Positions 61,978 to 63,074 of a DNA stretch of 64,000 bases are shown here, piece by piece. The notes under the pieces were generated by a model. It searched no databases. It was given only the letters and a program-made list of their open reading frames with translations, and was not told the origin of the DNA. Position 1 is the stretch's first letter, and each line of letters begins with the position of its first letter. A program made the position numbers and the translations under genes. This DNA is from an uncultured Gammaproteobacteria bacterium (GTDB lineage Bacteria; Patescibacteriota; Patescibacteriia; Magasanikbacterales; GWA2-37-8). The stretch lies in the NCBI GenBank assembly GCA_964465205.1, contig CAYXJO010000001.1:5099-69098 (forward strand), in the 5' to 3' direction.

Positions 61978-62103
61978 GGGGTTAATCCTTTCGGTTCGGT
62001 GTTACGGGGTTAAATTGTAAGGAGCTTTTCTAAAATGCATTTTCAGCATTCTAGGCCCCCACCTCCGAATTATCGGGGAGGGGAGTCTAGAATATTATTT
62101 ATG

Positions 62104-62124
62104 GTGTATTATATACACTAAGTA
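62104..62124 (+). promoter_or_regulatory. Copy a of 21-bp motif GTGTATTATATACACTAAGTA (inverted-repeat core GTGTA-N5-TACAC)
   Basis: Similar copies at 62226-62246 and, on the opposite strand, at 62947-62968. All lie in the regions flanking the NrtR-like gene and upstream of the island operon. Confidence 0.45.
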
Positions 62125-62225
62125 AATAGTAAAAAAATTTGTGAGCCCAGCGCCGCAGTACCATCCATTCCGAGGTGGCGCAGTGGGTGGGTGCAAAGGG
62201 GTGTAGAATGGGCATGGTTTGTATG

Positions 62226-62246
62226 GTGTACATATTACACTAAGTA
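62226..62246 (+). promoter_or_regulatory. Copy b of 21-bp motif GTGTACATATTACACTAAGTA
   Basis: Lies 15 nt beyond the nrtR-like stop, upstream of the minus-strand PP2C/kinase/NAD operon. Confidence 0.45.
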
Positions 62247-62260
62247 GTTAATAAAAAAAA

Positions 62261-62947
62261 TTATGATAAAATTTTGGCGAGGTGCGTGCGGCTGGCGGCG
62301 GTGAAAAGTTGTGCCGGGCGATTGGGGCGAGAACTATCGAAAGATTTGGTTGGTTTCACTAATTTGAGCGCCAATATTTTTTTGCGGAAATTACGTTTGT
62401 CTAATTTTTTATCGAGAATAATTTCGTAGGCGGTTTGCAAATCGGTAAGGGTGAACAGTTTGGGGAGTAGGGTGGTGATGATACTACTATATTCCAATTT
62501 GGAACGCAAGCGTTTAAGGCCGCACGTGATTATTTCGCGATGATCATAGGCCAGTAACGGCATTTTTTTGACGTCATACCATTTGATGTTTTGGTATTGC
62601 GCACTGGTGATAACTTTAATTTCGACCGGCGGCAAGGGCACCAAGTAGGCGACTGATACCACGCGGCCAAACGGATCGCGATTAACTTTGCCAAAAGTGT
62701 ATAGTTGTTCGAAATATGTCGGGCTCAGCCCAGCTTTTGTCTTCAGGGTGCGTTTCGTAGCGGATTCGAGCGATTCCTGTCCTCCCACCAGCCCGCCTGG
62801 AGCGGCCCACCAGCCGACATATGGCTGTTTGTTCATTTGGATAAGTAGTACCTGTAATTGTTTGTTTTGTAATCGAAAGACTACCGTGTCTACCGCGATC
62901 ACAGCGTGTTGGTATTTTTTGATTTTTTTCGTTTGGGCGGTAGTCAT
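62261..62947 (-). CDS. NrtR-like transcriptional regulator (N-terminal Nudix/ADP-ribose-binding domain + C-terminal winged helix)
   Basis: Nudix-fold N-terminal half (AVDTVVF...VLLIQ...WAAPGGLVGGQESLESATKRTLKTKAGL; catalytic box degenerate). C-terminal TLTDLQTAYEIILDKKLDKRNFRKKILAL resembles the NrtR winged-helix region. AT-rich, unlike the adjacent island. Confidence 0.6.
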   Translation of the reverse strand: MTTAQTKKIKKYQHAVIAVDTVVFRLQNKQLQVLLIQMNKQPYVGWWAAPGGLVGGQESLESATKRTLKTKAGLSPTYFEQLYTFGKVNRDPFGRVVSVAYLVPLPPVEIKVITSAQYQNIKWYDVKKMPLLAYDHREIITCGLKRLRSKLEYSSIITTLLPKLFTLTDLQTAYEIILDKKLDKRNFRKKILALKLVKPTKSFDSSRPNRPAQLFTAASRTHLAKILS

Positions 62948-62968
62948 ACTTAGTGTCTTATATACACA
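62947..62968 (-). promoter_or_regulatory. Copy c of the motif (minus strand: TGTGTATATAAGACACTAAGT), directly abutting the nrtR-like ATG
   Basis: Read in the same sense as nrtR, the motif ends at the start codon (…CACTAAGTATGACTACC…). Confidence 0.45.
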
Positions 62969-63074
62969 TAGTAACTCGGTGGCGACTTAGTGTCAAGGGG
63001 GAGTTATCCACAGGGGGTGGGCGCTAAACAAAAAATCCCCACGTATGTTCACGCGAGGATTTTTAATTTCGTAA

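Follow-up and report, generated by a model that had tools for sequence, protein, structure and literature searches.

What controls the eleven GC-rich genes that lie beyond nrtR in a 64,000-nucleotide stretch of contig CAYXJO010000001.1 (the window), and what is the role of the three copies of a 21-bp inverted repeat found around this gene? The window comes from a Patescibacterium, a bacterium of the Candidate Phyla Radiation (CPR). Patescibacteria cannot be cultured alone and depend heavily on salvage, and the eleven genes include a set for salvage of nicotinamide adenine dinucleotide (NAD). Judging from sequence comparisons, an NrtR-family repressor very probably acts through three operators to control both its own gene and the adjacent 11-gene operon. 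The elements concerned are the following, with scores from the weight matrix described below.

62261-62947, minus strand: nrtR, a Nudix-related transcriptional regulator of 228 amino acids with Pfam, NCBIfam and PDB matches
62947-62967, minus strand: motif copy 3, GTGTATATAAGACACTAAGTA, with one core mismatch (GACAC for TACAC)
62226-62246, plus strand: motif copy 2, GTGTACATATTACACTAAGTA
62104-62124, plus strand: motif copy 1, GTGTATTATATACACTAAGTA
62950-62970, no strand assigned: operator O3 (motif copy 3), 21 bp, TTAGTGTCTTATATACACATA on the plus strand, 22.7 bits
62223-62243, no strand assigned: operator O2 (motif copy 2), 21 bp, 14-17 nt past the nrtR stop codon, 22.7 bits
62101-62121, no strand assigned: operator O1 (motif copy 1), 21 bp, 24.7 bits

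The first-pass annotation had read the nrtR product as a degenerate Nudix domain with a C-terminal winged helix, the architecture of NrtR. Pfam, the Nudix box and the PDB alignments agree, and by these matches the protein is an NrtR-family regulator. PF21906 (NrtR_WHD) matches residues 159-215 (6.7e-22, 77.8 bits with a cutoff of 27) and NUDIX matches residues 21-139 (2.1e-11), a region that aligns with the Nudix domains of 3gz5 and 5bs6. Residues 10-217 are alignable to AraR of Bacteroides thetaiotaomicron (BtAraR, 5bs6, 8e-37) and NrtR of Shewanella oneidensis (SoNrtR, 3gz5, 3e-30), and the best NCBIfam match is NF050029, named 'ADPR responsive transcriptional repressor NtrR' (147.4 bits, E 4.7e-43). 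The Nudix box reads G52-x5-E58-x7-R66-TLKTKAGL. Within REUXEEXGU, the glutamate of RE and both glutamates of EE are replaced, and the domain is called degenerate and catalytically dead because of these three losses. A perturbed signature GX5EX7REUXEEXGU is typical of NrtR-family regulators although not obligatory. The nrtR start codon is consistent with 30 homologs. There are thousands of homologs, the nearest in Patescibacteria at 71% identity and the next at about 50-59%, so the regulator is a member of a large CPR clade and no oddity.

The recognition helix connects this protein to the repeats. In the BtAraR-DNA structure the GTGT motif is specified by K179, R180, N181 and K184 of the helix along with residues of the wing (PMC4666351). 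According to HMMER alignments, the helix of the window protein, DKRNFRK (D183-K184-R185-N186-F-R188-K189), has the same sequence as its counterpart in Bacteroides AraR, and R210 and A212 match the AraR wing residues R205 and A207. The C-terminal domain thus aligns with the NrtR winged helix and also keeps the DNA contacts of BtAraR; D183, K184, R185, N186, R188, K189, R210 and A212 are invariant or nearly so in 31 CPR homologs. With such a helix the protein would be expected to read GTGT...ACAC arms, as supplied by the window repeats. The NrtR operators published so far are mostly 21-bp palindromes built on a GT-N7-AC core (PMC2330246, Rodionov et al. 2008), which GTGTA-N5-TACAC includes.

The motif GTGTA-N5-(T/G)ACAC-TAAGTA occurs three times in the window, always at the nrtR locus, and 0.00 matches are expected by chance (100 dinucleotide-preserving shuffles). 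All three 21-bp copies reported in the first-pass annotation are thus present, but copy 3 ends at 62967 instead of 62968 and has the core mismatch. It does end at the nrtR start codon as proposed, since its last base on the minus strand is the A of the ATG (62945-62947). Copies 2 and 3 flank nrtR as a 21-nt inverted repeat, 700 nt apart and 86% complementary, and the 9-mer ACACTAAGT has a fourth occurrence as an extra half-site at 62985-62993 on the minus strand. A 21-bp position weight matrix, trained solely on sites of other genomes and then run over the 64-kb window, finds exactly the three operators listed above; the runner-up scores 11.1 bits and the maximum over 30 random sequences is 17.9. 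A generic promoter element was also considered and was rejected, as the motif is restricted to the nrtR locus in the window and tracks nrtR homologs elsewhere.

Comparisons with other genomes were based on 80 genome loci and 80 metagenome loci encoding homologs, plus loci with the exact protein, and counts are given over 159. In the 80 genome loci, with one core mismatch allowed, the 200-bp segments before nrtR hold 36 sites, a density of 2.25 per kb where the overall figure is about 0.1 per kb, and a second peak follows directly after the nrtR stop codon. An upstream site is present in 60 of the 159 loci and a post-stop site in 27, and many loci have sites on one side of nrtR only, or distant sites upstream of NAD genes. 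The 21-bp family consensus is TTAGTGTA-N5-TACACTAA. Its flanks are conserved though they were unused in site selection, so the 'CTAA...' extension noted earlier belongs to one half-site, as its outer part. When every 4-mer dyad was counted at spacers of 3-11 nt, GTGT-N7-ACAC came out on top (present in 53 of 156 upstream regions and in 10 of 502 control segments), and nested shifts of the same palindrome came next. The motif accompanies nrtR homologs at promoter-fixed positions in six or more phyla, whose genomes here range from 26 to 72% GC. Because the palindrome is strongly concentrated just upstream of nrtR and just past its stop codon, the repeats are identified as NrtR operators, and the three window sites are predicted operators of this protein.

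The first-pass annotation had seen in the layout both autoregulation and control of the downstream operon, and the placement of the operators fits this, with O3 at the nrtR promoter and O2 and O1 before the first operon gene, which encodes a PP2C-type phosphatase. The features at nrtR are two.

62968-62996, minus strand: nrtR promoter, with -35 TTGACA (62996-62991), a 17-nt spacer and -10 TACTAT (62973-62968)
63004-63012, plus strand: TTATCCACA box (TGTGGATAA on the nrtR strand), 7 nt upstream of the nrtR -35

The nrtR promoter was called with 10 of 12 matches. On the minus strand the order is TGTGGATAACT, 5 nt, TTGACA, 17 nt, TACTAT, O3 and ATG. O3 comes directly after the -10 and covers the expected transcription start and a short leader without a Shine-Dalgarno sequence, which is a typical repressor position, and the half-site ACACTAAGT (62993-62985) overlies the -35. 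NrtR bound to these elements would therefore block RNA polymerase. Three relatives were compared in detail, with NrtR identities of 71% (L082), 55% (L165) and 54% (L166). In L082 and L165, O3 keeps its position relative to the -10 TACTAT and the ATG, and the whole promoter block is kept, including the TTATCCACA box. The promoter string is preserved between L082 and the window, whereas the O3 spacer and the upstream sequence differ. L166 has the same -35 and an operator that abuts the -10 (TATTAT), with a leader of about 30 nt to the ATG and without the TGTGGATAA box.

Two further features lie between nrtR and the PP2C gene.

61978-62100, minus strand: leader from O1 to the PP2C start, with a hairpin, a 19-nt block and the Shine-Dalgarno sequence AAAGGA
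62010-62028, minus strand: 19-nt block AAAGCTCCTTACAATTTAA (also written AAAGCTCYTTACAATTTAA), about 35 nt upstream of the PP2C start, containing -10-like TACAAT (62019-62014) and conserved in L082

On the minus strand O1 is preceded by a T-run (62131-62137) and a -35-like TTTACT (62126-62121), and TA plus the 15-bp palindrome exactly fill the 17-nt spacer between TTTACT and a -10-like CATAAA (62103-62098). O2 is likewise preceded by a T-run (62253-62260) and a -35-like hexamer. As the palindromes fill the promoter spacers at O1 and O2, bound NrtR would occlude those promoters. In Myxococcus stipitatus and two cyanobacteria a -35 TTGACA is followed by TAGTGTA-N5-(T/A/G)ACAC before the PP2C gene, usually with a second operator 22-28 bp further on. 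This shared design supports promoter occlusion at O1, and occlusion at O2 is probable. The L082 alignment from the nrtR stop codon to the PP2C gene has four conserved blocks, namely the stop codon with T-run and O2, the T-run with TTTACT and O1, the 19-nt block, and the Shine-Dalgarno sequence. O2 is 100% identical in L082, spacer included, and O1 is kept with its T-run and TTTACT. Against a background of diverged sequence, the -35, the -10 and all three operators stand in L082 at the same positions and in the same orientation, and in L165 and L166 a T-run and then an operator follow the nrtR stop codon. Plus-strand TAGAAT hexamers beside O1 and O2 were considered as antisense promoters and dropped, since they are not conserved in L082.

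The following mechanism is proposed. A dimer of NrtR, with its catalytically dead Nudix sensor and winged helix, would bind the three 21-bp operators. On O3, and on the half-site at the -35, it would block RNA polymerase and give negative autoregulation. On O2 and O1 it would occlude one or two tandem promoters of the PP2C operon and also halt read-through from nrtR. A small molecule formed when NAD is consumed, with ADP-ribose or a closely related phosphorylated ribosyl compound as the likeliest candidate, would then bind the Nudix domain and release the repressor, switching on NAD recycling together with the signalling cassette linked to it. Repression, as opposed to activation, is what we infer from the site positions in the window, since Rodionov et al. 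drew the same conclusion from sites in matching positions, and MsNrtR of Mycobacterium smegmatis is known from experiments as an auto-repressor that ADP-ribose releases (PMC6800001). In many loci nrtR has NAD genes and the cassette as neighbours. The predicted target operon consists of eleven genes past the operators, all on the minus strand.

61135-61977, minus strand: gene 1, PP2C-type protein phosphatase, 280 amino acids, Pfam PP2C_2 1e-19
59274-61133, minus strand: gene 2, Ser/Thr-kinase-like protein, 619 amino acids, weak Pfam Pkinase (2.3e-4, below cutoff) and RIO1
57445-59295, minus strand: gene 3, fusion of an X domain and an amidase, 616 amino acids, start probably at 59217 (annotated 590 amino acids)
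56523-57389, minus strand: gene 4, von Willebrand factor A (vWA) domain protein, annotated 263 amino acids, DxTxS (MIDAS-like) and TDG motifs
55507-56274, minus strand: gene 5, stand-alone X-domain paralogue, 255 amino acids, 44% identical to the N-terminal domain of the fusion
47728-55480, minus strand: genes 6-11, NAD salvage and synthesis, Pfam and NCBIfam matches
54653-55480, minus strand: gene 6, PncA-like nicotinamidase
53251-54642, minus strand: gene 7, NadD-NadK fusion, 463 amino acids
52459-53118, minus strand: gene 8, Nudix protein resembling ADP-ribose pyrophosphatase
50822-52441, minus strand: gene 9, PncB
49743-50696, minus strand: gene 10, radical S-adenosylmethionine (SAM) protein between pncB and nadE
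47728-49695, minus strand: gene 11, glutamine-dependent NadE

Several observations weigh against the proposed switch. The match to NF050029 (147 bits) falls far short of the 400-bit equivalog cutoff, and the top PDB match is the arabinose-responsive AraR, not an ADP-ribose-responsive NrtR. Three ADP-ribose contacts of SoNrtR are replaced in the window protein (R41 by M38, R98 by F93 and N43 by K40). The putative -35 and -10 elements at O1, and still more those at O2, are weak and went uncalled in the promoter scan. A conserved -10-like TACAAT block lies about 85 nt downstream of O1. Inside the operon there is a 248-nt AT-rich gap (56275-56522) without an NrtR site according to the weight matrix. 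From the NF050029 score the protein is best described as a family-level relative and not an equivalog of the curated set. The gap suggests that the distal NAD genes may have a promoter of their own, and the eleven genes could be either one long operon, continuous over 14 kb, or a series in which the distal genes have unregulated internal promoters, likeliest in 56275-56522.

The replaced contacts concern the effector. It is possible, though less probable, that the regulator and operators are as described while the effector is something other than ADP-ribose, for example NAD+ as co-repressor, a pyridine mononucleotide, phosphoribose or a product of the cassette enzymes. Two SoNrtR arginines are lost, and M38 and F93, the residues in their place, show little or no variation across the CPR clade. 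The best structural relative responds to arabinose, NdnR of Corynebacterium glutamicum binds DNA better with NAD+ (PMC6800001), and effectors have diversified within the NrtR family (PMC2330246, PMC4666351). On the other hand, the contacts compared in PMC4666351 also include ribose-binding R90 and H136, alpha-phosphate-binding K71 (K76 in SoNrtR) and adenine-stacking Y12 (F15 in SoNrtR), which are kept in the window protein; R90, H136 and K71 are invariant. The residues L67 and F36 that fill the phosphate pocket of AraR correspond to K71 and K40, the latter adding a positive charge where AraR has F36. Given these kept residues and a phosphate pocket that is not filled as in AraR, a phosphorylated ribosyl ligand is likely. 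ADP-ribose itself is plausible, and it is the best guess from the ADP-ribose-related genes in these operons, which encode a protein like Nudix ADP-ribose pyrophosphatases in the window operon, an ADP-ribosylglycohydrolase in L166 and L168, and NADAR in L165.

The second alternative leaves the operators in place but takes the operon promoter out of the control of O1 and O2. Transcription of PP2C would in fact start from the TACAAT block near the ribosome-binding site, and O1 and O2 would serve only as roadblocks or terminator substitutes for nrtR read-through, or as auxiliary sites that load NrtR onto O3. The window and L082 have the 19-nt block in common, the hexamers at O1 and O2 are weak, and the promoter and terminator scan of the window found no terminator after nrtR. 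However, manual reading finds no matching -35 before TACAAT in either the window or L082, and L082 keeps the layout of T-run, TTWACT and palindrome in the spacer at both O1 and O2. In Myxococcus and the cyanobacteria the operators occupy the stretch from a perfect TTGACA to the PP2C start, which leaves no space for a further promoter. This second alternative is considered unlikely, and the TACAAT block may be an NrtR-independent or additional promoter or a leader element beside promoters occluded at O1 and O2. A riboswitch or other leader RNA before the PP2C gene was rejected. No Rfam family matches the leader of about 125 nt at gathering or permissive thresholds, and the imperfect hairpin at 62048-62093 is moderately stable (-30.5 kcal/mol, z -2.6) and loosely conserved in L082.

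That the repeats are not regulatory at all, and are either generic AT-rich promoter elements or the terminal inverted repeats of a small mobile element carrying nrtR, is hardly credible: the spacers do look like -10 boxes and copies 2 and 3 do form an inverted repeat around nrtR, but nrtR encodes no transposase, the window has three sites in 64 kb at this one locus, many loci have sites on one side only or far off upstream of NAD genes, and the motif follows nrtR across phyla at promoter-fixed positions, for which reason the mobile element in particular was rejected.

The first-pass annotation had described the island as NAD genes. This applies to PncA through NadE, but the first genes encode the PP2C phosphatase, the kinase, the amidase and the vWA protein. 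PP2C follows nrtR in 12 of the 159 nrtR-seeded loci and in 3 of 3 vWA-seeded loci. The kinase-like protein, which follows PP2C in relatives too, has a zinc-ribbon motif, CxxC-x8-CxxC, within the chain, and its C-terminal half is uncharacterised. Gene 3 combines the X domain (about 250 amino acids) with a nicotinamidase-related amidase of the isochorismatase family (about 350 amino acids). Homologs of gene 4 are named 'VWFA domain-containing protein' by UniRef, whereas the protein itself has no Pfam or PADLOC match; the amidase and vWA assignments are based on source names of homologs and on sequence motifs. Sequence searches of the PDB with the 616-amino-acid fusion and the 288-amino-acid protein gave nothing meaningful. 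The NadD-NadK fusion, a nicotinic acid mononucleotide adenylyltransferase joined to an NAD kinase, also follows nrtR or the cassette in L003, L008, L010 and L165. Weak PADLOC matches relate the radical SAM protein to prokaryotic viperins (2e-6), and its homologs adjoin nrtR in the DPANN archaeal loci L019, L021 and L038. Past the 3' end of the GC-rich block, a gene of the purine/uridine phosphorylase family, a HAD phosphatase gene and a weak PRTase_2-like gene occupy 45538-47588 on the plus strand and may act in nucleoside or nicotinamide-riboside salvage.

Is the operon a recent acquisition? The first-pass annotation considered nrtR to be native in composition, unlike the island, and the break in GC content at third codon positions (GC3) is real. 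GC3 is 0.40-0.49 in most window genes, 0.52 in nrtR and 0.51 in the gene for HU, compared with 0.59-0.82 in the 11 downstream genes. The further claim that a host regulator controls an acquired operon does not survive comparison with relatives. L082 has nrtR, PP2C, kinase, X-amidase and vWA at 61-77% identity, and the order in L165 is NADAR, nrtR, PP2C, kinase, X-amidase, vWA, PncA, a 297-amino-acid gene, NadD-NadK, Nudix and PncB. In L166 the cassette is followed by ADP-ribosylglycohydrolase and Prs. The PP2C-kinase-amidase-vWA cassette is found in 15 of the 159 nrtR-seeded loci, and in the vWA-seeded loci (Myxococcus stipitatus DSM 14675, Leptolyngbya sp. 'hensonii' and a cyanobacterial Logan contig with a protein that NCBI names from Neosynechococcus sphagnicola) nrtR is adjacent with operators in 3 of 3. 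The unit of nrtR, PP2C, zinc-ribbon kinase, nicotinamidase-related amidase and vWA, with NrtR operators before PP2C, therefore occurs in three phyla:

Myxococcota: L047, L073, L074 and L167
Cyanobacteria: L168 and L169
Patescibacteria: L004, L082, L165 and L166

Because the order of nrtR and operon is kept in Patescibacteria whose NrtR is just 55% identical, and because nrtR and the cassette also occur together in Myxococcota and Cyanobacteria, the pairing of regulator and target appears to be inherited with the module and to predate the window genome. Recent horizontal capture of the island by a resident regulator was rejected as the simplest reading. A cassette richer in GC than nrtR and the genes on either side is seen in L082, L165 and L166 as well, where the difference is smaller than in the window, and the GC3 offset could have causes such as repeated replacement among relatives or gene-specific constraints. 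Two other GC-rich regions were observed in the window. A 623-amino-acid open reading frame at 9803-11674 on the minus strand (GC 0.63, GC3 0.91, in a genome of about 44% GC) has a composition that suggests very recent foreign DNA, and a second, moderately GC-rich block of four genes with GC3 0.58-0.69 lies at 41739-44916.

Taken together, the system is a known kind of NrtR switch that is here well preserved in a CPR bacterium. NrtR of S. oneidensis (SO_1979; PDB 3GZ5, 3GZ6, 3GZ8) and the family described by Rodionov et al. (2008) have the same Nudix-like sensor with a degenerate signature and a winged helix, the same 21-bp palindromic GT-N7-AC operators over or just downstream of promoters, and the same linkage to NAD salvage. 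The differences are that the SoNrtR contacts R41 and R98 are not kept, that the window regulon opens with the PP2C-kinase-amidase-vWA cassette, which is absent from the 2008 regulon table, and that the host is a Patescibacterium. A literature search found no paper that ties NrtR to Patescibacteria or to this cassette, which is no proof of novelty.

AraR of B. thetaiotaomicron (BT0354; PDB 5BS6, 5DD4), the best-scoring solved relative, resembles the window protein in its DKRNFRK helix and wing and in having tandem operators upstream of its targets. It differs in that it senses L-arabinose and controls ara genes. Of its triad R34, R86 and H131, the arabinose contact R34 is lost (M38 in the window protein, invariant in CPR), while R86 and H131 are kept but are shared with SoNrtR. 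No arabinose genes are present in the window, and the protein falls outside the AraR subfamily by the criteria for that group. MsNrtR of Mycobacterium smegmatis (MSMEG_3198) has been shown by experiment to repress itself and an adjacent NAD operon, and it is freed from DNA by ADP-ribose (PMC6800001). It has an inactive Nudix domain and an adjacent NAD operon like the window system, but its operator is GTTTTCGA-N7-TCGAAAAC, its gene is divergent from nadABC, and it regulates de novo synthesis, not salvage.

The cassette resembles the TerY-P triad, which consists of a TerY-like vWA protein, a PP2C phosphatase and a Ser/Thr kinase with a zinc ribbon (PMC11090510). It has a PP2C, a CxxC-x8-CxxC kinase and a vWA protein, with the kinase below the Pfam cutoff and the vWA protein lacking a Pfam match. 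Unlike TerY-P, it always has a nicotinamidase-related amidase between kinase and vWA, and its association is with nrtR and with NAD or ADP-ribose genes rather than with Ter or restriction loci. PADLOC gave no match for PP2C, vWA or amidase and only a 16.7-bit MkoA match for the kinase, in a release whose TerY-P content is unconfirmed. TerY-P or another known defence system was rejected as an assignment, as no PADLOC model matched.

The CPR amidase is fused to a domain that may have an ADP-ribosyltransferase-like fold. As a tentative suggestion, the five-gene nrtR-PP2C-kinase-amidase-vWA module might be a system for phospho-signalling or conflict that consumes NAD, a triad like TerY-P to which an NAD-linked enzyme belongs. 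Its expression would receive feedback through an ADP-ribose-sensing repressor, and in CPR it would be joined to a complete NAD salvage operon. If this were true, CPR bacteria would rebuild spent NAD immediately. The value of the window is confirmatory, in that it offers a Patescibacterium in which an NrtR regulon can be clearly made out, from promoter and three operators to the target operon. The consistent partnership between this NrtR clade and the PP2C, kinase, amidase and vWA cassette was less expected and merits follow-up. The same unit is found in the genetically tractable Myxococcus, where the link between ADP-ribose sensing, protein phosphorylation and nicotinamide removal is therefore directly testable.

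One operator consensus, TTAGTGTA-N5-TACACTAA, and one helix, DKRNFRK, extend over CPR bacteria, DPANN archaea, Chloroflexi, Planctomycetes, Verrucomicrobia, Myxococcota and Cyanobacteria, so that regulons are easy to predict in metagenomes. Homologs 38-48% identical to the window protein are encoded in contigs labelled as Woesearchaeota, Nanobdellati or Methanosarcinales archaea (L006, L007, L011, L012, L019, L021, L033, L038, L058, L059 and L062), with high-scoring sites in at least L006, L007, L011, L012 and L059. If the bins are free of contamination, DPANN archaea would have a repressor of bacterial type together with its operator.

The region upstream of nrtR has two further peculiarities. 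L082 (3393-8670, compared with 62948-63075 in the window) has seven extra genes between HU and nrtR that are absent from the window, including those for an NMNAT-like cytidylyltransferase, TrmB, a nucleoside hydrolase and a protein like nucleoside deoxyribosyltransferases. The HU-nrtR junction is thus an indel hotspot for nucleotide and NAD-related genes. The TTATCCACA box upstream of nrtR is a conserved promoter-proximal element and not an NrtR site. This 9-mer, which corresponds to the DnaA-box consensus, occurs eight times in 64 kb where 0.45 copies are expected (at 8810, 11797, 22264, 32664, 41627, 45075, 63004 and 63460), and seven of the eight copies are intergenic. At nrtR, HU and the promoter at 45075, TGTGGATAA(C/A)(T/C) lies 5-7 nt upstream of -35-like hexamers, and the copies could be a site for DnaA or another global factor of the lineage.

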